This document shows, in pieces, positions 3,860-26,523 of a DNA stretch of 64,000 nucleotides; the first letter of the stretch is position 1, and each line of letters opens with the position of its first letter. A program made the position numbers and the translations under genes. The stretch spans positions 1,071 through 65,070 of the forward strand of contig JALWKV010000002.1 of NCBI GenBank assembly GCA_027081275.1. The letters are read 5' to 3'. The DNA comes from Gammaproteobacteria bacterium. GTDB lineage: Bacteria; Pseudomonadota; Gammaproteobacteria; UWMA-0217. Below the pieces are notes generated by a model. It did no database searches. It was not told where the DNA came from and saw only the letters and a list, made by a program, of their open reading frames with translations.

Positions 3860-5275
<1,416 letters not shown>

Positions 5276-5463: not shown

Positions 5464-6867
5464 TCAGAAGCGATACGGCATGCGCAGGCCGAAGGTGAAG
5501 TCGGGTGCGTCGTCGGTCAGGCCGATACCCACGGTCCCAGCGATCGACAGGTGTTTGCCAAGGCTCTGGGTGACGCCGGTGTTGAACATGGCCGAGTTGG
5601 CGTCGCTGCCGGTTACGCTGGTCCAGCCACTGCCGGCGGTGCGGGTGCGGGTCTTGCTGGTCAGCTTGTGGCTGAAAGAGAGGCTCAGGCTGGTGTTTTC
5701 GTTCATCGCGATCGCCATGCCGAGGCCATAGCTCACCGAGTCGCCGAGGTCGATATCGCCGGCGGTGCGTGTCGCCGGGTCGGAATCGACGTCGGAGAAT
5801 GACTCCTTGCGGGTGTAGCCGATGCCGAAGTTGCCGAACAGCACAGCCGGGTCGCTGACCCTGACGAACGAGACGCCGGTATTGAGCGACCAGACGCCGC
5901 TGCCGGTCGGCAGGTTGGCTGGGACCGAGAAGGTCGTTACACCGTCCTGATCCTTTTCGATGATCTGAACGGGAACCCCGTACGGGTGCTTGCCGGTCGG
6001 TGCGGTGATGTCGATGTTCCAGACCCAGTCGAGCTTGCGCGCCGTTGGGAGCAAGCGGTAGCTCATGCCGAAGGAGGCGTCCCCGAGCGCCGGTTGCCGG
6101 GTGACGTCGGTTTCGCTGGTTGCCGTTGCGACGCCTCCGACACCGCCCTTGGCGTAGGTCGTGCTGCGGTAGACCAGTGGCGTCGTCAGGTTCAGTACCA
6201 TGCGGTTCGACACGCCATAGCGCGCTGTCAGCGAATAGGTGAGCGTGTCCGAAGCAACGCCCTCGACAGCCAGATTGCCGAGAAAGATGGCGTCGAGCGC
6301 GAGAAAGCCGTTCAGCGTCAGCTGGGTACGGTCATAGCGGCTGTAGTCGAGCGCCGACTCCAGCGTGAAGGTTTGGTTGAAAGAGGGGTGCTCCGCGTCG
6401 ATCAGATCTTCGACATTGCGAGAAATCGCCGCCACATCTCTCGCCTTTTTCCGATCGGTGCCGACCTGCTTGCCCGATGATGGGGGCGATGCTGGAGTCG
6501 TGTGCTGGCCTGAAGTCTGTTGGGAGCTCGGGGCTGCGGTGGATCGATGAGCATCGCTCCCGGTGAGCGCCTTCAGTTTGAGGTCGAGTGCCCGCAGTTT
6601 TCTCAGGTCGTTGTTGTATTGCCTTCGCAATAACAGCATTTCCTGTTCCAGTTGTTGTCGCGTGACGGTCGGTCCATCGTTCTTGTTTTGAGTATTGTCC
6701 TTGGATGTTGCCGATGAAACGGTTGCAGCTGTCCTCCCTGTTGAAAGCCCCCATTCCCTTTGCGAAGCTGATGAGCTGGTATCGGCCGCAAAAGAAGACG
6801 TGGCGACAATGGCGATTAGTATGGCCGCAGCGGCAGCCTTTGGGCCGAAATCCTTTTCAACTATCAT
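5464..6867 (-). CDS. fapF: FapF-like outer-membrane amyloid secretion pore
   Basis: It has a signal peptide, a coiled-coil segment (LEQEMLLLRRQYNNDLRKLRALDLKLKAL), a Ser/Thr/Pro/Ala-rich linker and a beta-barrel ending in ...MPYRF (C-terminal Phe). It is the last gene of the operon, as in Pseudomonas fap. Confidence 0.8.
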   Translation of the reverse strand: MIVEKDFGPKAAAAAILIAIVATSSFAADTSSSASQREWGLSTGRTAATVSSATSKDNTQNKNDGPTVTRQQLEQEMLLLRRQYNNDLRKLRALDLKLKALTGSDAHRSTAAPSSQQTSGQHTTPASPPSSGKQVGTDRKKARDVAAISRNVEDLIDAEHPSFNQTFTLESALDYSRYDRTQLTLNGFLALDAIFLGNLAVEGVASDTLTYSLTARYGVSNRMVLNLTTPLVYRSTTYAKGGVGGVATATSETDVTRQPALGDASFGMSYRLLPTARKLDWVWNIDITAPTGKHPYGVPVQIIEKDQDGVTTFSVPANLPTGSGVWSLNTGVSFVRVSDPAVLFGNFGIGYTRKESFSDVDSDPATRTAGDIDLGDSVSYGLGMAIAMNENTSLSLSFSHKLTSKTRTRTAGSGWTSVTGSDANSAMFNTGVTQSLGKHLSIAGTVGIGLTDDAPDFTFGLRMPYRF

Positions 6868-6921
6868 GAGTACATCCTGTTTTGGGAAGTGCTTGGCGGA
6901 AAAGGCGCTGCCAAGCGGGGG

Positions 6922-7713
6922 CTACAATCCTCGCAAACCGCTCAATGAAACGCCAAGAATCCTGCTCAGATTGGTCGACTCGTTGCCCGGTTTCATCAGA
7001 ATTGAGAGCTGCATACGGTTCGATATGGTGTGCGCATCGCCCAGCGTGCGGATCGACTGATGCGCGCCGCGACCCGTTCCGCCGATGACGGCGCCGCGAA
7101 TCGACTGCTGGACGACGCCTTGTCCCGCAATGGAGAGCGTTACCATCACGCCGCGCTCGTCGAGCCCAGAGCTGGCGGTAGCACCGGTGTTGTCGGTCAT
7201 GGTGCGGGAGACCGCTTCGGTCCCGCTGTCCCGCGACTCGGGCATGCTGTCGAGCATTCTGATGCCGAGCGTGTTCGAGGCCTGATTGAAATCACCGGCC
7301 ACCTGAATGGTCTGTCCCAGACCGGTCACGTTGTCGATGCCGCCCGGTTCGATGTGCCGGTCGGTGGGCGCCGCGCGTGTCGGAGTGCGGCCGCTGGATA
7401 CGATGCTCACGGTTGGCGTGAAGCTGACGGTGGGCGTGCCGCCGCCGGAAAAGTCCAGCCCGAGCCTGGCGCCACCCGATAGCTGCTGTCCCTGCGCCGT
7501 TTGCCACCTGCTCGCCATTTCCACGCCGAAATAGAGTACGCGATGGGTATCGACGACATATTTCCCCCTGATCTGCGCCATTTCCGGGTTGGTCAGCAGT
7601 GAGATGCCATTGCCCACGCTGCCATCGCCGGGCGCCGCCAGCAGCGCCGCTGGCGCCGCGGGCATCAATATCCCGGCGAGGAGATGGGCGATCAACCTCT
7701 TTCTCGTTTTCAT
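6922..7713 (-). CDS. fapE: FapE-like secreted protein
   Basis: It has a signal peptide, is 263 aa, and sits between the C39 peptidase gene and the fapF-like gene, the canonical fapE position. Any sequence similarity could not be checked. Confidence 0.55.
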   Translation of the reverse strand: MKTRKRLIAHLLAGILMPAAPAALLAAPGDGSVGNGISLLTNPEMAQIRGKYVVDTHRVLYFGVEMASRWQTAQGQQLSGGARLGLDFSGGGTPTVSFTPTVSIVSSGRTPTRAAPTDRHIEPGGIDNVTGLGQTIQVAGDFNQASNTLGIRMLDSMPESRDSGTEAVSRTMTDNTGATASSGLDERGVMVTLSIAGQGVVQQSIRGAVIGGTGRGAHQSIRTLGDAHTISNRMQLSILMKPGNESTNLSRILGVSLSGLRGL

Positions 7714-7725
7714 TTGTTGTGTTCC

Positions 7726-8430
7726 TCAGAAAAGGTCCGCATGAGTAAAACCGAAATCCAGCAGTTCCGAATCTGGTATCGCGGCCTGTTTTTCCAGCCA
7801 TTGATTGGCGCTGAGCCTGAACGGCATTTTCAGCAGTGCGGTGTTGCGATCGAAGCCGCTGCCGATGACAGCGAAAATCACCCGGTTGGCCCAGGCTTTG
7901 CGGAATGCTTCGAGATCCATCACCTTGTTGCCCAGTACCGGGTCGGCGAGAAACGCCTCGCCATCATGGATGCGTTTCAGAACGGAGAAATGCCGGTAGC
8001 CATCGATGTCCACCAGGACGATGACCGGGATCTTCAGTCTCTTCAGACGCTCCTCGGTAAGGCGATAACCGCGCCCGCGCAGCCCCAGTGATCCGACGTA
8101 GCGCTTCATGTCGAGCATCGAGAATCCTTTGCGTCGCACGATTTCTGCGTCGCCGGCATTGAGCATGCCCTGCATGATGACTTCTTCGGTCGCATCCATG
8201 CCGTAGCCGTACTTCAGAATCGTGGCCAGTGCCGCCGCGCCGCAGCTGTAGTCCGTTTGTTGCCTGATCACATTGGCGTATTTTGCTTCCTGCATGCTGA
8301 CGACGCGGCTGGTGTAGAGCCCGCCGAAAGCGGTTACGCCCGAGAACTGGACGTTTCCGGCGCCGGCGGTTGTCCCCGACAGGTACATCGCCGATGCCAG
8401 TAGTGCTGTGACGAAAGACTTGCGTTGCAT
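7726..8430 (-). CDS. fapD: FapD-like periplasmic C39-family cysteine peptidase
   Basis: It has a signal peptide and the peptidase C39 catalytic region ...QQTDYSCGAAALATILKYGYG... Confidence 0.8.
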   Translation of the reverse strand: MQRKSFVTALLASAMYLSGTTAGAGNVQFSGVTAFGGLYTSRVVSMQEAKYANVIRQQTDYSCGAAALATILKYGYGMDATEEVIMQGMLNAGDAEIVRRKGFSMLDMKRYVGSLGLRGRGYRLTEERLKRLKIPVIVLVDIDGYRHFSVLKRIHDGEAFLADPVLGNKVMDLEAFRKAWANRVIFAVIGSGFDRNTALLKMPFRLSANQWLEKQAAIPDSELLDFGFTHADLF

Positions 8431-8513
8431 GAGACCGGCCTCGCTGACTGGAATGTGTGTTTGGATGCCGGGGCCGAAGGCGTCGGCCCCGGTGCGCTTG
8501 ACGCGATGCTCCG

Positions 8514-10625
8514 TCAGTGGCCGGTGGGCTTGCTGGCCGTGCTGGAGGCGATCGCCAGGCTGTTGGCCTGCATGTTGCCGTTGCCGGATGACATGTTCAC
8601 GCCGATGTTGCCGCTGGCGCCGGACAGCGCATTGCCGCCCAGTACGACCCGGTTGACGGCGTTGTCGACGAGGATGTGCGTCTTGTAGGTAACGGTGCCC
8701 GAGACTTCCGTGGCCAGATTGATGTCAGACATCTCTTCGAAGCTCAGCGTGCCATTTTCGCTGCCGTTGCTGGAGGCGTTGACACTGCCGTTGATCTTGC
8801 CCGATTCACTCCCCGCGTACTTGCCGGAGGAGCTGGCCTGGGTCGAACCTGCGGCCTGGCCCTGGTAGCTTCCTTCCGCCTTGGCCTTCAGCTCGCCTTT
8901 TTCGTTGCCGCGATACTCGCCGGCCTCTCGTCCCTTGTACACACCTTGGGAGACTGCAGCGGTTTTACCCGCTTCCTCCCCCTGGTAGTAGCCTTCGTTC
9001 GTGGTTCTGAGCTTGCCCTGCTCGGTCCCCGCGAACTTGCCGGACTCCTTGCCCTCGTAGATGCCCTTGATTGTGGCCGAGGTGCTGCCTTCTTCCCTGC
9101 CTCGATAACGACCCTGGCTCGTCGCCCGGGTCTCGCCACTGGCGTCGCCGCGGAATTTGCCGCTTTCGCTGCCTTCATACTCGCCGACAGAGAGCGCTGC
9201 CGTGACGCCCACTTCGCCACCGCTGTAGCTGCCACTGCTGGTGCCGCTGTATGCGCCGGTCTCGCCACCGGTGATCTGTCCTGAAGCGTTGCCTTCATAG
9301 CTGCCGTTGGATGTCCCCTCGTAGGTGCCTTTTTCTTTCATCACGGTGATGCCGACGACAGGCAGCTTGTGTTTTCCTTTGTAGTTGCCGCTCTGCTCGG
9401 CACTTGTGGTGCCGGATTCGGTGCCGTTGTAGGAGGCCGCTATTTCGCCGTTGTAGAAGCCGCTGGTCTGGCTCTGGGTCGTTCCCGCCTCGACGCCGAT
9501 GTAACCACCGATCGATGCGGCTTCCGTGGTGCCTTCCTGCTCGCCTTCGTAGGTGCCGTTGATGGTGCCCTTGTAGCTGCCCGCGATGTGCGCCTGCGTA
9601 TTGCCGCGTGCCACGCCCTCGTAGTTGCCTGTCGACTTGGCGGCGGTCTTGCCGTAGCTCTCACCGTTGTATTCGCCTTGCAGTCTTCCAGCGTATTCGC
9701 CGGTGCTGTGCCCCGCGGTTCGTCCGCCGGTCTCACCCGCGTAGATGCCCAGCGAGATCCCTGCTGTCGCACCCTCCGCCTGACCGTTGTAGCGGCCCGC
9801 TTCCTGGCCCTGGTACGCGCCGGCGATGTTGGCGGTGGTTGTACCTTTCTCGGCGCCCTTGTAGCTGCCTGTCAGCTGCGCCGACGTGGCGCCGCTCGCG
9901 CTGCCGCTGTAGTTGGCGTTCACGCTGCCGTTGATATTCGCGTTGGTCTGACCGGCGTAGCTGCCCTTGCCAACGCCCCTGGAGGTACCGTTCGATTCGC
10001 CCTTGAGTTCGATCGTGGTGGAATCGGAGACGACGTCGTAGCGACCTTCGGTGGTGACCGAGTTGCCGATTGACTCCTGATGGACGCCGGCGGAAGCCGC
10101 CACTGGTCCGGTTGAGGAGACCGATACGGCAAAATCGTTCTTTTGCAGATTGAAATTGCCGGAAGCGATGTTGGCGCCGACGTTGCCGCTAACGTTGCTG
10201 ATGGCGTAACCATCGAGCCATGCCTCATTGCGACTGCCCGAGCTGGAAAACCTGTTGCCGTTGATGCGCTGCTCGACGAAAACCTCGGCCGTCGGGTCGC
10301 CGAAGACAAAGGACGCATCGCTGTCGGACGTGGCGATGGCAGCGGCGTTGGCCTGCATGTTGTTGTCGCCCGAGGAAATGTTCACGCCCATGTTGCCGGA
10401 GGTATCCTTCATAGCGTTCTCGTTGAGCGACGACTGGTTGTCGGCTGACTTGACGACAATGGCGTTGCCTTCGGCTGCCTGCCTATCGGAGACCGATGCC
10501 ATTGCCTGGGCCGCGACGGTATTGCCGTTTTGTGCCGGCGTCGTTTCGGTCGCAAGCAGCGGGGTGCTCGTGATGCATGCGGTGACTGCGACACAGATTG
10601 CAGTTTTCTTGTATTGGATTTTCAT
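8514..10625 (-). CDS. fapC: FapC-like amyloid major subunit with a greatly expanded repetitive linker (703 aa)
   Basis: After the signal peptide there are two N-terminal Fap repeats (SGNMGVNISSGDNNMQANAAAIA and SGNVGANIASGNFNLQKNDFAVS) and one C-terminal Fap repeat (SGNIGVNMSSGNGNMQANSLAIAS). They are separated by ~450 aa of 11-residue GxYxGxxxGxx repeats. The ATG at 10625 has a GGGAGAAGAGAG ribosome-binding site, whereas the ORF-track start at 10643 is TTG. Confidence 0.8.
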   Translation of the reverse strand: MKIQYKKTAICVAVTACITSTPLLATETTPAQNGNTVAAQAMASVSDRQAAEGNAIVVKSADNQSSLNENAMKDTSGNMGVNISSGDNNMQANAAAIATSDSDASFVFGDPTAEVFVEQRINGNRFSSSGSRNEAWLDGYAISNVSGNVGANIASGNFNLQKNDFAVSVSSTGPVAASAGVHQESIGNSVTTEGRYDVVSDSTTIELKGESNGTSRGVGKGSYAGQTNANINGSVNANYSGSASGATSAQLTGSYKGAEKGTTTANIAGAYQGQEAGRYNGQAEGATAGISLGIYAGETGGRTAGHSTGEYAGRLQGEYNGESYGKTAAKSTGNYEGVARGNTQAHIAGSYKGTINGTYEGEQEGTTEAASIGGYIGVEAGTTQSQTSGFYNGEIAASYNGTESGTTSAEQSGNYKGKHKLPVVGITVMKEKGTYEGTSNGSYEGNASGQITGGETGAYSGTSSGSYSGGEVGVTAALSVGEYEGSESGKFRGDASGETRATSQGRYRGREEGSTSATIKGIYEGKESGKFAGTEQGKLRTTNEGYYQGEEAGKTAAVSQGVYKGREAGEYRGNEKGELKAKAEGSYQGQAAGSTQASSSGKYAGSESGKINGSVNASSNGSENGTLSFEEMSDINLATEVSGTVTYKTHILVDNAVNRVVLGGNALSGASGNIGVNMSSGNGNMQANSLAIASSTASKPTGH

Positions 10626-10654
10626 AAGACTCTCTTCTCCCAAGTGGATTGATG

Positions 10655-11314
10655 TTATGGAGTGGTTTGCATGAACACGCGGTTTTGCGTGACGTTGTGC
10701 ATCCCTGCTGCCTGGTTGAGCTGAAGCACGCCCTTGACGCCTCGGAAGGCCGTCTTGTCGACATGTGCGGTGCGAATGCCGCCGGATTTCCTGTCATTGG
10801 ACCGTCCGGATGCAGCGGCGACATCCAGTGAAGTCTGCGCCAGCAGATCATCGGTCAGCTCCGCCGGCAGTCTTTCATGTGAAATGGTGATGGCATTGCT
10901 TTCCAGATTGCCGGCGCCGCTGGCCTGGTTGATCGACAGTAGACCAACCGTGTTTTGAAATGCGTTTTCGCGGATGCTGGTGGTCAAGGCGTCGGCGGAT
11001 GTTGCGCCGGCCAGTGATGAAACCTGTCTGATGCTGGCTGTGGCCGGCCCCGAGCCGGCGCCTTCATTGATCGCGCGGACGTTGGCCTGCAGGTTGAAAT
11101 CTCCTGCTGCCTGGTTGATCCCGACGATCCCCTTGACATTACTGAGTGCGTTGTTGGTGATGATGGCGTCGCTGAGATGGCCGAAGTCTTCGGTAGCCGT
11201 CAGCGGCTGGGTCGTGCCGGCGAGCGCCAGCCCTATTGCCGAGGCGGTGAAGAAACGTCGAAACGGATATTCCGAAAATGGTATCCGCCTGTTCTGACTG
11301 GTCTTGCTGGACAT
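10655..11314 (-). CDS. fapB: FapB-like amyloid minor subunit / nucleator
   Basis: It has a signal peptide plus three Fap repeats (GIVGINQAAGDFNLQANVRAIN, VGLLSINQASGAGNLESNAITI, KGVLQLNQAAGMHNVTQNRVFM) matching the GxxGxNQAAGxxNxQxN consensus. It is the first gene of the operon, with a GGGAGGA ribosome-binding site. Confidence 0.75.
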   Translation of the reverse strand: MSSKTSQNRRIPFSEYPFRRFFTASAIGLALAGTTQPLTATEDFGHLSDAIITNNALSNVKGIVGINQAAGDFNLQANVRAINEGAGSGPATASIRQVSSLAGATSADALTTSIRENAFQNTVGLLSINQASGAGNLESNAITISHERLPAELTDDLLAQTSLDVAAASGRSNDRKSGGIRTAHVDKTAFRGVKGVLQLNQAAGMHNVTQNRVFMQTTP

Positions 11315-11343
11315 AGATCCTCCCGTTTGCTGCGAGGGGTAAT

Positions 11344-11358
11344 GCAGAAGGTGTGCCA
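11344..11358 (-). promoter_or_regulatory. sigma-54 (-24/-12) promoter of the fap operon
   Basis: The minus strand reads cTGGCACaccttcTGCat: a perfect TGGCAC -24 box, GG-N10-GC spacing and a TGC -12 element. It ends ~30 nt upstream of the fapB ATG. Confidence 0.5.
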
Positions 11359-11418
11359 GCGTCGTAACAGGCTGTAAACCCAGGTGTTTCTGTTGTCGTA
11401 GGGCCCCGGCTCGGGGGT

Positions 11419-11508
11419 GATCTGTTCAGATCTTTTACAGCGCTTGAGCCGCTTCCCAGCCATTCCGCGGTTTTCACGGAAAAAGCGGCTGTTCAGGATC
11501 TGAACAGC
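11419..11508. promoter_or_regulatory. Two related palindromic sites (GATCTG-TT-CAGATC at 11419-11432; GCTGTTCAG-GAT-CTGAACAGC at 11488-11508), candidate enhancer for the sigma-54 activator
   Basis: The two perfect dyads are centred ~70 bp apart, 75-145 bp upstream of the -24 box. This is the typical geometry for an enhancer-binding-protein site. The divergent lipoprotein gene shares this region. Confidence 0.4.
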
Positions 11509-11809
11509 TGGGGACGCGGCAGGTGGCTGGCGCTTGGGGAAGAAGAGAGGTTGGATCTGTGGGAGCGTACTGTACGGGACGCAACGGCGGATGGCCGCGA
11601 GAAGCGCGGACTACATGATGAAGTGAAGAGTTTCACAGAATCGTCGGAGAATGGCGATCCTTCTTATGATTGCTGAACTTTGCGCAAAATCCCCCTGTCG
11701 GATTGGTACCGATGGTTGCCGCGCCGGGAATTGCCCGGGGTTGTGGCCGTGTCGGATCCGGTACTTCAATCGCAAATGAGCTTCGCTCAAACGACTCGGG
11801 GTAGACACC

Positions 11810-12841
11810 ATGCGCGCCAGATACGCCACGCTTTTTCTTTCCAGCCTGCTGTTTCTTGCAGCCTGTGACCCCGAAGAAACAGGCTACAAGGACTGGTCGT
11901 TTCTGACCGCGGACAAGAGCGGGGTGCTTGGCGCACCACTGATATCGGGCATGGCCTACAGCACATCGACCAATCACGGGCTGACCGATGACAAGGGCCG
12001 CTTCAACTACCGCGACGGCCAGCAGATCGGTTTCTCCATCGGCGACATCAATCTGCCGCGCGTGACCGCCAAGCCGCTGATCCGGCTGGTGGACTTCGGT
12101 GGCGGGCAGGAGAACCAGGTGGTGCGCAATATTCGCCGTCTGCTGTGGACGCTGGACACCGACGGCAATCCGGCCAACGGCATCACCATCGACGCGATCG
12201 CGCGGGAAAGGGCCAAGTCCGCCCTGGTCGACTTCAACATGCCCACCGATGCCGCTTTCGAGGCGAATGTGGCCAACTATCTGGCGCGGGTGAAACCGGC
12301 CAATCCGGTGCTGGTCTCGCTCGATGCCGCAGCGCCGGCAGCGGGCGGCACGACACCGGCGGCGAGTACAGGTGGACATGGGGGCGGCGCGGGCCAGATC
12401 CCGGTCGATCCGCCCGCGCCGGCAACATCTTCCGAGTCGACATCCGGGACGCCGACGGCGCTCGAGCCTCCGCGCCGGCTGACGGTCAACGCGGCTGCCA
12501 TCGGCATGAATATCGTCTCCGAGGATGGCGCCGGTTATGTCTTTGAAGCGCAGGCCGGCAAGACGTACACGATCACCGTGGTGCCGAAGACGCCGACCGA
12601 TGATCCCGAGGTATTCGTCTTCCGCAACTTGACCGACATGCGCAATTACTGGAGCGTGGAAGCGATCGGCGGGGTGGACTCGCCGGAAGCGACGGCATTG
12701 CGGGTCGGCATTTCGACCAGCGAGCCGGGCATGACGGAAACGATCTCGTTTACGGCCGATCGTGGCGGCGACTACTTCATCATGATCGTCGATACCTCGA
12801 ATCGCGGGAATGCGACGATCACGGTGACCGAGCAGCCGTAG
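11810..12841 (+). CDS. lipoprotein of unknown function (lipobox LFLAAC), Ala/Gly/Pro/Thr-rich linker, C-terminal beta-rich domain
   Basis: It has a signal peptide with a lipobox cysteine and coherent codon usage. It is divergent from the fap operon. No family was recognised. Confidence 0.6.
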   Translation: MRARYATLFLSSLLFLAACDPEETGYKDWSFLTADKSGVLGAPLISGMAYSTSTNHGLTDDKGRFNYRDGQQIGFSIGDINLPRVTAKPLIRLVDFGGGQENQVVRNIRRLLWTLDTDGNPANGITIDAIARERAKSALVDFNMPTDAAFEANVANYLARVKPANPVLVSLDAAAPAAGGTTPAASTGGHGGGAGQIPVDPPAPATSSESTSGTPTALEPPRRLTVNAAAIGMNIVSEDGAGYVFEAQAGKTYTITVVPKTPTDDPEVFVFRNLTDMRNYWSVEAIGGVDSPEATALRVGISTSEPGMTETISFTADRGGDYFIMIVDTSNRGNATITVTEQP

Positions 12842-14714: not shown

Positions 14715-15770
14715 ATGTCGAAACGATTTCCCTACCTGATCGCCGCGGCCCGTTGTCTTCTTCAAGCTGTTCCCGTTCATCGCCTCATGCGCCCTCTCTA
14801 CGGTGGAATCGGCACCATTTTCATGCTGCATCGTGTGCGGCCGCTGAGCGCGGAACCCCGTCTGCCTGACAATGCCCGGTTGGAAGTCTCGCCGGCGTTT
14901 CTGGCGTCGCTTGTCGATTTTGTTGTCGATACCGGTTTCGATGTGGTGTCGCTCGACGAGGCGCATGCGCGACTGGTTGGAAAATCTGACGGTAGACGTT
15001 TTGTCTGCTTTACCTTCGATGATGGTTACGCGGACAACTATGAATATGCTTACCCCGTTTTTCGTGAACGTGGCCTGCCGTTCGCGGTGTACGTTGCCTC
15101 GGGGTACATGAGCCGTTCCAGCATATTGTGGCACTGCATGCTGGAAAAGCTGCTGTTGCGCCATGATGAGATCCGCTACGAGCTGGATGGCGTCTCCCGA
15201 GTGGAGCGGGCGGTGACCATGGAGGAGAAGGAGGCGCTCTACGACCGTCTCTGCAACATCGTTATGGGGCTGCCGTCGGCGCGCTGGCCGGCGCTGTTCG
15301 ATTCGCTGTTCGACGATACGGGCATTCGGCCCGAGCAGTTCCATGCGGAGGTGATGGACTGGGATCAGGTGACGGCGCTTGCGCGGGATCCGCTGGTGAC
15401 CATCGGGGCGCACACGGTCAATCACTACAACCTGGCGCTACTGGAGGAGGCGCAGGCGCATTGGGAGATCGCCGAGTCGAAACGGATTCTCGAGCAGCGT
15501 ACCGGGCGCCCGGTCAGGCATTTCGCCTATCCATTCGGGCTCGCCGCCCATGCGGGTGAAAGGGAGTTTAGACTGGTCGAGTCCTGCGGTTTCGACACGG
15601 CGACGACGACCCGTGAAGGCAATCTGTTCCCCGCCCACCGTGGGCATCTCCACTGCCTGCCGCGGATCGAGGTGACGGGGCGGCATCAGGATGTGGCTTT
15701 CGTTGACATGCGCCTGAGTGGCGTCGTCGCCCTGTGGCGGTATGGCCCGCAGCGGGTGGTCACGGCCTAG
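14715..15770 (+). CDS. polysaccharide deacetylase family protein (NodB homology, CE4)
   Basis: FTFDDGY ... HTVNHYNL ... YPFG motifs of the CE4 NodB domain are present. Confidence 0.75.
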   Translation: MSKRFPYLIAAARCLLQAVPVHRLMRPLYGGIGTIFMLHRVRPLSAEPRLPDNARLEVSPAFLASLVDFVVDTGFDVVSLDEAHARLVGKSDGRRFVCFTFDDGYADNYEYAYPVFRERGLPFAVYVASGYMSRSSILWHCMLEKLLLRHDEIRYELDGVSRVERAVTMEEKEALYDRLCNIVMGLPSARWPALFDSLFDDTGIRPEQFHAEVMDWDQVTALARDPLVTIGAHTVNHYNLALLEEAQAHWEIAESKRILEQRTGRPVRHFAYPFGLAAHAGEREFRLVESCGFDTATTTREGNLFPAHRGHLHCLPRIEVTGRHQDVAFVDMRLSGVVALWRYGPQRVVTA

Positions 15771-21565: not shown

Positions 21566-23665
21566 CTATTGCAGCGTCAGGTCCTCGTTGATGATCTTCG
21601 GCGTGACGAAGATCAGCAGTTCCGACTTGTCGTGGGTGTTGCTGTTGCTACGGAACAGGCGACCGATGACGGGCAGGTCGCCGAAGAACGGCACGCGCGT
21701 TTCGGAGTTCGTCTTGTTCTCCTCGAAGATGCCGCCGAGGACGATGGTCTGGCCGTTTTCGACCAGCACCTGGGTCTGCACCTCGCGCGTGTCGATGCTC
21801 GGGATGTTGTTGAAGACATCGCCGACGCTGTCGCGGTTCACCACCAGCTCGAGATTGATGCGGTCGTCGAGCGTGATGTGGGGCGTGACCTCCATGCTCA
21901 GCACCGCCTTCTTGAACGAGGTGTTGGTGGCGCCGCTGGAGGTGGCTTCCTGGTAGGGAATCTCCACGCCCTGCTCGATGCGCGCCTTGGTCTTGTTCGA
22001 GGTGATGATGCGCGGGCTGGCGACGACCTCGGCGCGACGCTCGGCGACAGCGGCGGAGAGCTCGAGATCGAGCTTCGCGCCCAGCGGAATCTTCGCCAGC
22101 GCAAGGCCGAGCGTGCCGGCGGTGCCGCCCACCGGGGTGTTGACCTGGAATCCGGTCGTCAGGTTCTGGTCGGTCGTATTGTTGGTATTGGATACGCCGA
22201 AGGTCACGCCCAGCTCACGGGTGAACTTGTCATTGGCGGTAACGATCCGGCTTTCGATCATCACCTGCCGCACCGGCACGTCGAGCGTCTTGATCAGGGC
22301 GCGGATCTCGTCGAGCTTGTCGGCGGTGTCCTGGATCAGCAGGCTGTTGGTGCGACGGTCGAGGGTGATGCTGCCGCGGTCCGACAGAACGGTGTTGGCG
22401 CTGCCACGACTGCCACCGTTCGACTTCAGCAGCTTGACCATCTCCTTGGCGTCGGCGTAGTTCAGCGGGATGATCTCGGTGCGCAGCGGCGCCAGTTCGG
22501 CCACCTGCTTCGACGCCATCAGCTCCTGCTGCTCACGCTCGGCGATCTCCTTGGCCGGCGCGATATAGAGCACGTTGCCCTGGCGGCGCTTGGCCAGCCC
22601 CTTGGTCTTCATGATGATGTCGAGCGCCTGATCCCAGGGGACGTTCTTCAGGCGCAGCGTCAGATTGCCGGTCACGCTGTCGGAGACGACGACATTGAGG
22701 CCGGTAAAGTCGGCGATCAGCTGCAGCACGGAGCGCACCTCGATGTCCTGAAAGTTCAGCGACAGGCGCTCCCCCTTGTAGCTGATCTCCTGCTTCTTTC
22801 TGGCTTTTTTCGCGCCCTTGATCGGACGAACCTCGACCGTGTAGACGTCGTCCGACTGGTAGGCAAGCTGCGAAAAGTTGCCCTTGGCCTTGATGACGAT
22901 CTCGGTATTGCGGCCGACCGAGCGCGCGTCGATGGACTCCACCGGCGTGGCGAAGTCGAGTACGTCCATGTGGCGCTCGAGATTTTTCGGCAAGGTTGCG
23001 TTCTTCAGTTCGACAACGATGCGCGAGCCCTGCTGCTTGATGTTCAGCGGCGTGCTGGGGTCGCGCAGCTTGATCAGTACGCGGCCGGCGCCGTCGGGGC
23101 CGCGGCGGAAGTCGATGCCGGTGACGCCGAACAGCGGCTTGGGCCGGGATCGCGCGGCGGGTTTGGGTGGTGCGGCCTGCATGGCCGTTGCCGGCGCGGC
23201 GGGGGCCGCCGGCGGCTCGATGGTGAAGCTCGGCTGCGCGGCGGCCGGCGAGAGCGACACGATGAGCTTGTTGCCTTCGCTCCGGGTCTGATACTTCACC
23301 ATGCGTGACAGGTTGATGACCATGCGGGTGCGGTCACGGGCCTGGGCGGTGGTGATGCTCTGGGCGGCGCCGATCTGAACCGGCAGCGAGCGCCGGCGCA
23401 GGTTGTTGCGCGTATTGGGAAAATCCAGCGTGATGCGCGCGGGATTGGCGATGGTGAAGCTCAGCGGCTCGGGGGCGGGGCCGGAAAAATCCATGACGAT
23501 GTCGAGCGCGTCGCCCGACTGCCGATTGATACGGATATCCTCCAGCGATGTGGTCTCCGCCACGGCTGACGCCAGCGGAAGGATCGTCAGCAACAACAGG
23601 GCGAATGTCGCCATCCATGCCCGGACCCTCCCATCTGTTCGTATGATTTCGCGCATATCCATCAT
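21566..23665 (-). CDS. pilQ: type IV pilus secretin PilQ
   Basis: It has AMIN/N domains and a C-terminal secretin domain, and is the last gene of pilMNOPQ; the start is uncertain. Confidence 0.9.
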
Positions 23666-23704
23666 ATATACCTGTTTTTCCCTGATTTTAGTACTCTGTC
23701 CGGC

Positions 23705-24238
23705 CTATTGATTGCTGAGTGCAATCGCGGCCGGGCGCTCCTTGTAACCACCAAAGCCGTCCGGCACGATCTCGGTCAGTTCGACCTTCATATCCGTGAT
23801 CTTGGTGATCCTCCCGTAGTTCTGTCCCGCATAGTTGCCCACGCGCACGCGCTGGATGGTCCCGTCCGGCGTTTTCAGCAGCGCCCACAGCGAGCCCTGC
23901 TGCTTCAGTGTGCCGACCATCCTGAGCGAGTCGAGCGGAAAGCTTTCCAGGTATTCCTTAGGCCGGTTCCGGTCGATCTGGATGCCCGATGTCGATTTGG
24001 GGATCGGCATCAGATCGGGCGCCACGATACTGCTGTCGAACGGATCGCGCAGATGTTCGGGATAGACGAACGGATCGTAGGGCGGAATCACCGGGATCGG
24101 CGGTATGGCGCCAGCCGGTTGCGACTTGACCTCCTCGATGTAGTCGCGCAGATCCTGATTGTCCTGTTCGCAGCCGCCCAGGCCCGCCAGCAGCGCCAGC
24201 ATCACCATTGCGCGTCCTGTCATGCTATATGCCGCCAT
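23705..24238 (-). CDS. pilP: type IV pilus lipoprotein PilP
   Basis: It has a lipobox (LAGLGGC) and is in the canonical operon position. Confidence 0.8.
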   Translation of the reverse strand: MAAYSMTGRAMVMLALLAGLGGCEQDNQDLRDYIEEVKSQPAGAIPPIPVIPPYDPFVYPEHLRDPFDSSIVAPDLMPIPKSTSGIQIDRNRPKEYLESFPLDSLRMVGTLKQQGSLWALLKTPDGTIQRVRVGNYAGQNYGRITKITDMKVELTEIVPDGFGGYKERPAAIALSNQ

Positions 24239-24873
24239 CAGTGCTTCCTTTTCCGCTTGCCCTTTTTCTTCTTCGTCTTCTGCTCACCGTCGGCGAGGTG
24301 GCGGTAGGTCTTGGCCGTCACCTCCATGATGAGCGCTTCCGAATCCTTTTCGGGCTTGATCGAGATGTCGTCCAGCGTGGCGATGCGCGGCAGGCTGGCG
24401 ATGCCACTGGCGAAGCGTCCCATCTGGTCGTACTTGCCGCGCAGCTTGATCTTGATCGGCTTCTCGGCGTAGAAGCCCATGTCCACCTCGGGCTGGGGCT
24501 TGAACAGCAGGATCTGCAGGCCGCTGGAAAGGCCGGTCTGCGACACGTCGAGAATGACGGCCGGGATCTCGGTCTTGTCCGGCAGCTGCTGCAGCATGGC
24601 GCCGAACTCGTGCTCCATCTCCGCCAGCTGTTCGCGATAGGCCTCGAGGTTCGCGGCCAGGTGGTGCTTCTTCTCGAACTGCTTGCGCAGGTCCTGCTCC
24701 TTGTCCTTCAGGCTTTGCAGCGACTCCAGCTGGCTGCTGGTGTCGAGGTAGTAGCCCAGCGCGATCACCGCGGCGAAGGCGAGCGCGAAGAAGATGGCGC
24801 GGATCGCCAGCGGCGCCGAGCCGAGCTTGCCGAGGTCGCTGACGTCGAAATTCTTGAGTTCTTCAAGATCCAT
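24238..24873 (-). CDS. pilO: type IV pilus assembly protein PilO
   Basis: It is a single transmembrane segment plus coiled-coil protein in the operon position. Confidence 0.85.
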   Translation of the reverse strand: MDLEELKNFDVSDLGKLGSAPLAIRAIFFALAFAAVIALGYYLDTSSQLESLQSLKDKEQDLRKQFEKKHHLAANLEAYREQLAEMEHEFGAMLQQLPDKTEIPAVILDVSQTGLSSGLQILLFKPQPEVDMGFYAEKPIKIKLRGKYDQMGRFASGIASLPRIATLDDISIKPEKDSEALIMEVTAKTYRHLADGEQKTKKKKGKRKRKH

Positions 24874-25456
24874 TGCGCTTCTCCTTGCCGCTGGCGATCG
24901 TATCCGGCATCTCCTTGTCGACCTTCAGCACGAAGGAGCGCAATACTGGGCCGCCGCCTTCCTTCTCCTTCTTGACCGTCTCGATGACCTCCAGCCGCGG
25001 GTCCTTCAGCCACGGCGAGTTCTCCAGGTTGCTCATGTAGGTCGAGACGCGGGCGTCCGATTCGGCCTTGCCGCGAATCTCCAGCGTGTCTCCCTTCTGC
25101 TCGATCTGTGTCAGGTAGAGTCCGCCCGGTAGCGTCGTCACCAGCTCGTCGAACAGATGGACCGCCACCGGTCGGCTGCGCTGCAGTTTTTGGATGATGT
25201 CCATGCGGTCCAGCAGCGCCTGCTTGGTTTTCTCCAGCTCCTTGATATCGCGGATGCGCTTGTCGAGTACCTTGAATTCCTGCCGCAGCATGTTGTTGCG
25301 GCTTTCCTGGTTTTCGGCCATGCGTCCGATCACCATATGGGCGGCGACGACGACCAGCACGCCGGCCAGCGCGGCGAGGCCAAGCCCCTGGAGGAATTGC
25401 TTCTGCTGTTCCTGACGCCGTTTTTCGCGCCACGGCAATAGATTGATACGTGCCAT
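24863..25456 (-). CDS. pilN: type IV pilus assembly protein PilN
   Basis: MARINLLPWREKRRQ... is the PilN N-terminus. Confidence 0.85.
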   Translation of the reverse strand: MARINLLPWREKRRQEQQKQFLQGLGLAALAGVLVVVAAHMVIGRMAENQESRNNMLRQEFKVLDKRIRDIKELEKTKQALLDRMDIIQKLQRSRPVAVHLFDELVTTLPGGLYLTQIEQKGDTLEIRGKAESDARVSTYMSNLENSPWLKDPRLEVIETVKKEKEGGGPVLRSFVLKVDKEMPDTIASGKEKRNGS

Positions 25457-26523
25457 CAGTCGAAGTTCCTCAAAGCCAGGCCCACGGCAATCATCAGTGC
25501 CGGAGCATCATTGCCGAGCCGTTGCTGGTTGATCTTGGGATTGAAGCTCATCCGGCTGAAGGGGTTGGCGATGGTTGTGCGGGTATGGGTGTGCCGCTCG
25601 ATCAGTTCGTCCAGCCCCGGCAGCCCGGCGGTGCCGCCGGCGAGGATGATTTCGTTGACCATGTTGTGGTTGCTGTTGGCAAAGAAGAACTGCAACAGAC
25701 GATTGGCCTCTTGGGCAAGCGTCTTCTTGAACGGCGTAAGGATTTCGGTGACATAGTTGTCGGGCAGGCCGCCTTCCTTTTTGGCCAGCCCGGCCTCGGC
25801 GTAGGAGAGGCCGTAGCGACGCATGATCTCCTCGGTGAGCTGGCGTCCGCCGAAGGGTTTTTCGCGCGAATAGAGCACTTGTTCGTTCTCCGTCACGGTG
25901 ATGCTCGTCATCGTTGCGCCGACATCGACGATCGCGACGACATTGCTGTCGGGCGGCGCGTCGTGCGGGATATAGGGTTCGATCAGTTGATAGGCGTTGG
26001 CGGTGGCGAAGGACTCGACGTCCATCACCACCGGTTCGAGTCCCGCGGCCTCGGCGATGGCGGCGCGCGATTCGACGATCTCGCTGCGCGAGACGACCAG
26101 CAGCACGTCGATCTTGTCGGGCTGGTTCTCGTTCGTGCCCAGCACCTCGAAATCGAGATTGACCTCGTCCAGCGGGTAGGGGACGTACTGGTCGGCCTCA
26201 AGCTGGATTTGCCCCTCGAGCTCCTCCTCGTTGAGGTCGCCGGGCATGGTGATGACCTTGGTGACGGCGGCCGAAGTCGGCACGGCCAGAGCGCAGCGCT
26301 TGGCCTTGGTGCCGGCGCGGCTGAGCGCCTTGTTGAGGGAGCTGGTGACGGCCGACGTGTCGGAAATGTTCTTTTCGACGACCGCGTTGACAGGCAGGGG
26401 CTCCACCCCGTAACTTTCCACCCTGATGCCATTGCCGGACCGGCGCAGCTCGATAAGCTTCACCGAGGTCGAGCTGATATCAATCCCGACGAGTGGTTGA
26501 TTTTTCCTTCCGAGTGAAAACAC
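25456..26523 (-). CDS. pilM: type IV pilus assembly ATPase-like protein PilM
   Basis: It has the actin-like fold of PilM (MFSLGRKNQPLVGIDISSTSVKLIEL). Confidence 0.9.
   Translation of the reverse strand: MFSLGRKNQPLVGIDISSTSVKLIELRRSGNGIRVESYGVEPLPVNAVVEKNISDTSAVTSSLNKALSRAGTKAKRCALAVPTSAAVTKVITMPGDLNEEELEGQIQLEADQYVPYPLDEVNLDFEVLGTNENQPDKIDVLLVVSRSEIVESRAAIAEAAGLEPVVMDVESFATANAYQLIEPYIPHDAPPDSNVVAIVDVGATMTSITVTENEQVLYSREKPFGGRQLTEEIMRRYGLSYAEAGLAKKEGGLPDNYVTEILTPFKKTLAQEANRLLQFFFANSNHNMVNEIILAGGTAGLPGLDELIERHTHTRTTIANPFSRMSFNPKINQQRLGNDAPALMIAVGLALRNFD

Follow-up and report, generated by a model that had tools for sequence, protein, structure and literature searches.

A fap locus on a gammaproteobacterial contig

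The DNA studied here is a 64-kb stretch of contig JALWKV010000002.1 from an uncultured gammaproteobacterium, called the window below; searches of the host DNA cover this window only. Positions 5464–11314 hold five minus-strand open reading frames (ORFs), all co-directional and with small gaps between them, which correspond to fapB, fapC, fapD, fapE and fapF of the Fap functional-amyloid system, and the gene for a sigma-54 enhancer-binding protein lies next to them (Table 1). Judged from its sequence, the locus adds a divergent member to the known Fap system, in the common fapA-less form, and we consider it highly probable that it is a complete, functional fapBCDEF operon with its own regulator. 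A first-pass annotation had described the five genes and their operon accurately, and had overlooked the sigma-54 regulator, the promoter, a hairpin after fapC and the internal order of the FapC linker.

Table 1 Features of the fap locus and its surroundings (positions in the window; aa, amino acids)
Feature	Position	Strand	Description
Sigma-54 enhancer-binding protein gene	3860–5275	−	471 aa, just downstream of fapF
fapF	5464–6867	−	467 aa, predicted outer-membrane amyloid transporter, C-terminus ...MPYRF
fapE	6922–7713	−	263 aa, predicted secreted accessory/anchor protein
fapD	7726–8430	−	234 aa, predicted periplasmic C39 cysteine peptidase
Post-fapC hairpin	8468–8492	−	GC-rich, 10-bp stem, starts 22 nt after the fapC stop codon
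fapC	8514–10625	−	703 aa, predicted major amyloid subunit
FapC linker L2	8778–9965	−	residues 221–616, 396 residues
fapB	10655–11314	−	219 aa, predicted secreted minor/nucleator amyloid subunit, three imperfect repeats
Sigma-54 promoter (−24/−12)	11343–11358	−	TGGCACaccttCTGCA, 29–44 nt upstream of the fapB ATG
Related half-site	11419–11429		GATCTGTTCAG, related copy upstream of the sigma-54 promoter
Perfect palindrome	11488–11508	−	GCTGTTCAG-N3-CTGAACAGC, ~145 bp upstream of the −24/−12 promoter
Lipoprotein gene	11810–12841	+	343 aa, predicted lipoprotein, divergent from fap, LFLAAC lipobox
Deacetylase-like gene	14715–15770	+	351 aa, weak PgaB/HfsH-like polysaccharide deacetylase domain
pilQ and four small genes	21566–26523	−	pilQ secretin gene, then genes at the expected pilP-pilO-pilN-pilM positions

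The start of fapC was placed at an ATG that agrees with its orthologues and with a public gene call; the mechanical ORF list begins six codons earlier, at a TTG. The public contig used for this independent call (metagenome scaffold ENA ERZ23491300) is identical to the window, and the call gave equal product lengths for the four genes covered, including the 703-aa product of fapC. By inspection, a Sec-type signal peptide stands at the start of all five Fap proteins. The loci used for comparison come from three sister metagenome-assembled genomes (MAGs; L001–L003), a second, more distant MAG from the same study (L012), Pseudoxanthomonas (L004, L008 and L010), Guyparkeria (L005–L007), Billgrantia kenyensis (L013) and Acidithiobacillus ferrivorans (L014).

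Identity of the five Fap proteins

The five products match the five corresponding NCBIfam models, with family matches well above anything that chance would give. The 219-aa protein, which had been called FapB-like on account of three repeats, aligns with the FapB model (E = 2.9e-28, residues 30–213 against model positions 9–185 of 190), and three Fap-type repeats can be read in its translation (GIVGINQAAGDFNLQANVRAI, GLLSINQASGAGNLESNAITI and GVLQLNQAAGMHNVTQNRVFM). The 703-aa protein, likewise proposed as FapC-like, matches the FapC model over residues 1–695 (E = 2.1e-45) and carries three repeats of its own (GNMGVNISSGDNNMQANAAAIA, GNVGANIASGNFNLQKNDFAVS and GNIGVNMSSGNGNMQANSLAIA, also read from the translation), which align with the repeats of other FapCs. 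Its layout consists of a signal peptide, R1 (residues ~61–100), a first linker L1, R2 (~131–170), a very long second linker L2 and R3 (~651–695). Alignment to the FapC fibril chains in the PDB (9u4u_A, E = 1.9e-18; 9nqd, E = 1.1e-17) covers residues 17–193, with R1 and R2, and residues 639–695, with R3, and AlphaFold places beta hairpins at the three repeats with a predicted local distance difference test score (pLDDT) of ~70.

The C39 peptidase at the FapD position matches NCBIfam C39_FapD (E = 2.7e-75) and Pfam Peptidase_C39 (E = 7e-22), and in an alignment with PCAT-type C39 domains their catalytic residues have counterparts in its Cys (QQTDYSCGAAAL), His (YRHFSVL) and Asp (LADP). The secreted 263-aa protein encoded between fapD and fapF matches FapE (E = 8.8e-22, residues 40–262 against model positions 29–241 of 247) with a score of 77.5 against a cut-off of 250 bits, which marks it as a divergent homologue.

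FapF, whose barrel, N-terminal coiled coil and C-terminal Phe had been recognized in the first-pass annotation, matches its NCBIfam model with E = 9e-114 and PDB entry 5o65 with E = 2.2e-82. Its AlphaFold model, computed from 50 homologues (mean pLDDT 75.8), begins with a signal helix, followed by a long helix (residues 70–106, pLDDT 86–90), a linker without order, a short helix (residues 152–159) and a beta-barrel (residues 167–466, pLDDT >90); the C-terminal residue is Phe. The model superimposes on 5o67 and 5o65 with template modelling (TM) scores of 0.92–0.93 and a root mean square deviation of ~2.3 Å. In a Foldseek search the best 18 matches are all FapF (TM 0.90–0.95) and the next outer-membrane family, the COG4313 channel, reaches a TM score of only 0.69, so that the protein does not belong to another outer-membrane barrel family.

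Absence of fapA

No fapA precedes fapB, as had been claimed: the 495 bp upstream of fapB (11315–11809) contain no credible ORF, and no ORF there matches any family, those present running either across fapB in another reading frame or into the divergent lipoprotein gene. In the Guyparkeria and Pseudoxanthomonas loci, the ORF directly upstream of fapB matches NCBIfam FapA models. Searches for FapA by tblastn and with a hidden Markov model (HMM), built ad hoc from Guyparkeria, Pseudoxanthomonas and Billgrantia FapA candidates, found none in the window, in the three sister MAG loci or in the locus of the more distant MAG (best E = 0.02); this HMM is weak, the 131-aa gene product upstream of fapB in Billgrantia being dissimilar to the other FapAs. 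Since the gene is absent from the window and the sister loci and is carried by the named relatives Pseudoxanthomonas and Guyparkeria, fapA loss is, on these sequence comparisons, a trait of this clade and not an assembly accident.

The fapA-less form is ordinary and already known. The gene is absent from 6 of 16 genera, and its deletion leaves Fap biofilms in place (PMC3792158). Operons of the fapBCDEF type without fapA occur in Aeromonas, Shewanella, Vibrio, Chromobacterium, Laribacter, Desulfohalobium and Acidithiobacillus (PMC3792158) and form a canonical class, fapABCDEF or fapBCDEF making up >90% of 1602 GTDB fap clusters (PMC12822426).

A long periodic linker in FapC

FapC proteins average 377 ± 143 aa across the family (PMC3792158), and the excess length of the 703-aa protein lies in its second linker, L2. 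Its 396 residues, 84 Gly and 29 Tyr among them, fall into ~49 octads (G-x-[Y/T]-x-[G/A]-x-x-x) that follow a super-period of 40 residues (16 + 16 + 8), seen as an autocorrelation peak at lag 40, with one 20-residue break at residues 413–432. Tandem Repeats Finder detected no tandem repeat in the L2 DNA, and recent expansion by slippage was rejected for want of a DNA-level repeat.

Against its counterparts in L001 and L002, L2 aligns gap-free save at the central break, so that register and length are retained at 51% identity; conservation is 92% at the Gly positions, 81% at the Tyr/Phe positions and 36% elsewhere. Because the Gly and Tyr columns are conserved far above the remaining positions, L2 is, as far as the alignment tells, a periodic scaffold under purifying selection within the clade.

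A different second linker is seen in many non-pseudomonad FapCs (P0121–P0125; L007, 6878–8203; L008, 6450–8102), which carry a module of the form DVYPDxW...GHxDLD...GGSDLNGDGGALAF flanked by short GxYxG runs. The FapC of the window lacks this module. The octad array seems to have grown, by expansion, out of a linker motif that was already there.

An exhaustive HMMER search with L2 against 1.84 billion representatives returned only unrelated low-complexity proteins with a Gly period of four (best 139 bits); the negative is imperfect, the query's own cluster likewise not being recovered. It gave no support for L2 as a shared domain and no homologue outside the clade. When full-length FapC was used in a word-indexed search, low-complexity words dominated the result, which comprised only five shorter FapCs and missed the query itself. 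In the literature, nothing usable was found on Tyr/Gly linker repeats in FapC.

A charge-hydropathy plot places L2 among disordered sequences. In current models the linkers of Fap lie at the surface of the fibre (PMC3792158, PMC12822426), and L2 is for this reason most likely a Tyr-rich, hydrated surface coat, largely flexible and yet constrained in sequence. It is conceivable, though we would bet against it, that L2 is a selected functional module rather than a passive spacer, through which the fibres of this clade acquire a new property. Were that so, it might form a regular Tyr-ladder or beta-rich sheath, the 40-residue super-period being near the rung length of a Fap repeat, or alternatively a sticker-spacer coat that could be cross-linked via its tyrosines or could gel with polysaccharide. 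The practical side of the locus lies in this FapC variant: a natural amyloid core with a highly regular Gly/Tyr repeat display of 400 residues bears on how linkers tune fibre surface chemistry and on engineered amyloid materials.

A sigma-54 promoter and its putative activator

The −24/−12 element upstream of fapB is the one match to TGGCAC-N6-TGCW in the window, and L001 (5314–5329) and L002 (5470–5485) have the element equally far from fapB, within flanking sequence that is only ~50–70% identical. Farther upstream lie a perfect palindrome and a related half-site. These motifs are partly conserved in the sister loci, the TGTTCA/TGAACA half-sites being invariant columns in the alignment with L001 and L002, and they are candidate upstream activating sites for an enhancer-binding protein. 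The palindrome was flagged as terminator-like, yet no minus-strand gene ends upstream of it. A scan for sigma-70 promoters and terminators gave nothing above shuffled sequence, and the region before fapB yielded no sigma-70-like promoter.

The 471-aa regulator encoded beyond fapF matches the Pfam families VpsR (E = 3.6e-14), Sigma54_activat (E = 3.2e-69), AAA_lid_14 and HTH_8. Alignments to ZraR and FleQ show the segments EKGAFTGA, GESGTGKE and GTLFLDEI, so that the GAFTGA loop and the Walker motifs are intact, and the helix-turn-helix is of the Fis type. By inspection, its VpsR-type N-domain is without the acidic pocket of phosphorylatable receivers, having LLCLGGAA where DD/ED is expected; for this reason the protein is probably not controlled by phosphorylation.

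As located by tblastn, the regulator gene adjoins the fap genes in other genomes as well, co-directional and downstream in L001 and L003, convergent and downstream in the three Pseudoxanthomonas loci and upstream in the three Guyparkeria loci. Three further homologues (46–51% identical) whose context was inspected, those of the more distant MAG, Billgrantia and Acidithiobacillus, all lie beside fap genes. The linkage spans several gammaproteobacterial orders and at least three gene arrangements, and it appears to be ancient, being found in Pseudoxanthomonas, Guyparkeria, Billgrantia, Acidithiobacillus and this clade. The 120 best homologues of the regulator include no Pseudomonas protein.

In P. 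fluorescens PF07, fapA-E has an RpoN-dependent −24/−12 promoter (PMC9207406), and BrfA, encoded next to these fap genes, is needed for fap transcription and senses cyclic di-GMP (c-di-GMP; PMC9207406, PMC13101488). By analogy, the regulator of the window would be a BrfA-like dedicated activator of the fap operon. Against this stands the view that the Fap system is real while the neighbouring activator controls something else, another promoter or regulator drives the fap genes and the match TGGCAC-N5-CTGCA is fortuitous. Of 100 shuffled versions of the window, 30 do indeed contain a single chance match to the loose promoter pattern, and the regulator family is large (7997 matches at E ≤ 1e-40). 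Yet the promoter stands exactly upstream of fapB and keeps that position in L001 and L002 while its flanks diverge, the regulator lies beside fap in seven arrangements or lineages in all, no sigma-70-like promoter offers itself instead, and Pseudomonas supplies an experimental precedent. We therefore hold an unrelated activator and a chance promoter match to be unlikely.

On the other side of fapA-F in Billgrantia kenyensis (15877–17972 of L013) lie genes for a VpsT-like REC/GerE regulator and for a second sigma-54 activator without a VpsR domain, which suggests layered fap regulation in that species.

A hairpin after fapC

The fapC–fapD intergenic region folds with −37 kcal/mol (z = −2.6) and contains a GC-rich hairpin. 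Hairpins of different sequence occupy the same site after fapC in L001 (~8153–8185), L002 (~8282–8314) and L012 (~12360–12384), the last being followed by a U6 run. Because the structure is conserved without conservation of sequence, attenuation or mRNA stabilization is suggested: the hairpin is probably a partial terminator/attenuator or an mRNA stabilizer that would raise fapBC over fapDEF. The fapF–regulator intergenic region folds no better than shuffled sequence (z = −0.5), and an Rfam scan of the window returned nothing at the gathering threshold.

Relatives, selection and chromosomal setting

The closest species representatives in GTDB are MAGs labelled Gammaproteobacteria or Thiotrichales. 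The sister MAGs carry the same block of fapBCDEF and regulator, at 59–68% protein identity and in at least three other genomes; FapB orthologues occupy the same position in L001 and L002 (63–65% identity), FapE orthologues are found in L001–L003 (63–66%), and the FapC of the sister MAGs has ~695 aa. Pseudoxanthomonas and Guyparkeria are the next relatives, with FapF identities of ~42–50%. Between L001 and L002, the ratio of nonsynonymous to synonymous substitution rates (dN/dS) is 0.066 for FapD, 0.086 for FapC, 0.12 for FapF, 0.19 for FapE and 0.22 for FapB, and the fap genes of this pair are therefore under purifying selection.

These low ratios argue against a decaying locus. It could be supposed that the cluster is a non-functional Fap remnant from which no fibre is made: fapA is absent from the window and from the MAG loci searched, every NCBIfam score lies under its curated cut-off, and other bacteria are known to carry partly deleted fap operons, as Acidithiobacillus ferrivorans does (PMC3792158; L014). 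Set against this are five intact ORFs with signal peptides, a FapD that keeps its catalytic triad, a FapF barrel predicted with high confidence that superimposes closely on known FapF, conservation of all five genes and the regulator in the sister genomes, and a G+C content at third codon positions of 0.70–0.78, as in the neighbouring genes. A remnant is thus very improbable. Least credible of all is a different fibre system that also pairs a C39 peptidase with a FapF-like barrel, such as the putative Fil pilus of Acinetobacter. NCBIfam pilus_FilB does match the peptidase (E = 1.9e-37) and pilus_FilC the barrel (E = 2.9e-23), but the Fap models score much higher (FapD 252 against FilB 129 bits, FapF 380 against FilC 83 bits), the FapB, FapC and FapE models match too, and the subunits, besides bearing repeats of the Fap type, can be aligned with FapC fibrils of known structure.

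The base composition at the fap locus shows no island-like break, and the flanks consist of housekeeping genes (coaBC, radC, a gamma-carbonic anhydrase gene, ubiA, obg, proB, aroB and pilQ), with mrcA, hemE, tsaD, ccoN, ccoG, icd, clpA and fabF farther along. Given these flanks, and since the fap cluster of the more distant MAG adjoins the same radC-coaBC neighbours, the locus is an old chromosomal resident and not a mobile island.

In the more distant MAG, a pel exopolysaccharide operon (PelB, PelD, PelF-like and PelG; 1–8917 of L012) lies directly upstream of the regulator-fapBCDEF block, placing two matrix systems side by side; the window has no pel genes at the matching position. Similarity of the predicted 343-aa lipoprotein to the SslE/AcfD N-terminal region is weak (E = 9e-5), and the lipoprotein gene lies beside fap in no relative. 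The deacetylase-like protein, encoded a few kb from fap, may be matrix-related. The pilQ gene and the four small genes after it fit type IV pilus assembly; the family check among them covers pilQ only.

Points against, and a proposed pathway

Several observations weigh against a complete, functional operon with its own regulator. The first-pass annotation had proposed a search against Pfam Fap models as a check. The NCBIfam models match, all of them below their curated equivalog cut-offs (bits against cut-off: FapB 98.8/190, FapC 155.8/195, FapD 252.5/330, FapE 77.5/250, FapF 380.5/700), and the copy of Pfam that was searched returned no Fap-specific family for the five proteins, only C39 and generic barrel families. 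A newer Pfam family, PF27129 FapBC, was seen only in precomputed annotations of other proteins. Functional equivalence is accordingly extrapolated across ~35–45% sequence identity. The AlphaFold model of FapC, computed from six sequences, has a pLDDT of ~25 over residues 193–653 and is uninformative on L2, and rpoN does not lie within the window.

Control by c-di-GMP, plausible by analogy, is a weak step. FleQ has five c-di-GMP contact residues, numbered here after Matsuyama et al. 2016. Compared with FleQ structures 8p53 and 5exx, the regulator retains of these only the Arg-Asn pair after Walker A (GKELAARNIH) and has His at the position of R144 and Thr/His at those of E330/R334. A literature search on the c-di-GMP contacts of VpsR found nothing usable.

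The sub-threshold scores mark the locus as a divergent lineage of the Fap family; the NCBIfam models are tuned to Pseudomonas-like sequences, and non-pseudomonad FapCs vary with respect to the cut-off, that of the Guyparkeria locus L007 lying above it and that of the Pseudoxanthomonas locus L008 below.

What the analysis shows directly is homology, architecture, catalytic residues, the fold of FapF, a conserved promoter, linkage between regulator and fap, and purifying selection; expression, amyloid formation, the signal and the binding sites of the regulator, and what the hairpin and the linker do are inferred from these. Taken as a complete operon with its own regulator, the locus may work as follows. 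Transcription would start at the sigma-54 promoter upstream of fapB, activated by the adjacent VpsR/BrfA-type protein, which is probably bound at the TGTTCA/TGAACA palindromes ~80 and ~145 bp upstream and may respond to c-di-GMP. The hairpin after fapC would probably hold the mRNA of the subunits above that of the machinery. Sec would export all five products. FapF, with its coiled coil, plug helix and 12-strand barrel, would form the outer-membrane channel; periplasmic FapD is expected to process components, after which the channel would pass unfolded FapB, FapC and FapE. Outside the cell, FapB would nucleate FapC, whose three repeats would stack as the cross-beta core of an amyloid fibre; FapE would remain associated with the fibre, and the Gly/Tyr octad linker would decorate its surface as a hydrated coat. 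The FapA chaperone would take no part, as in many Fap lineages.

Comparison with known Fap and curli systems

With this locus, an uncultured gammaproteobacterial lineage joins those known for the Fap system, for the fapA-less form and for linkage to a sigma-54 activator of the BrfA type. What our analysis adds is the regulator–promoter pair, the hairpin after fapC and the unusually regular giant linker of FapC; in all else the operon is an ordinary one for the biofilm matrix, correctly annotated.

The locus shares with Pseudomonas Fap the gene order B-C-D-E-F, the three repeats in FapB and in FapC, a C39 peptidase as FapD, a FapF with coiled coil, plug helix and barrel (PDB 5O65, TM 0.93) and the Sec signal peptides. 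It differs in being without fapA, in a protein identity of ~35–40% and in the position of the regulator gene, which is co-directional downstream of fapF here and convergent there; the 396-residue Gly/Tyr octad linker accounts for a FapC of 703 aa in place of ~250–340 aa. With the known fapA-less fapBCDEF operons it has the same five-gene architecture, in a separate uncultured gammaproteobacterial lineage.

The regulator resembles BrfA of PF07 (D7M10_RS14495), an RpoN-dependent regulator of the Fis family, in architecture and gene position: both are sigma-54 activators encoded adjacent to fapF, with a −24/−12 promoter before the first fap gene. The two differ in gene orientation, and the FleQ-type contact residues are partly kept in the regulator of the window.

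Curli (csgBAC/csgDEFG) offer a parallel in logic, with a nucleator and a repeat-bearing major subunit, a dedicated outer-membrane channel and extracellular nucleation-precipitation. There is no relation in sequence or fold: the Fap channel is the trimeric FapF barrel whereas that of curli is the CsgG nonamer, and Fap, unlike curli, needs a peptidase and has its repeats parted by linkers.

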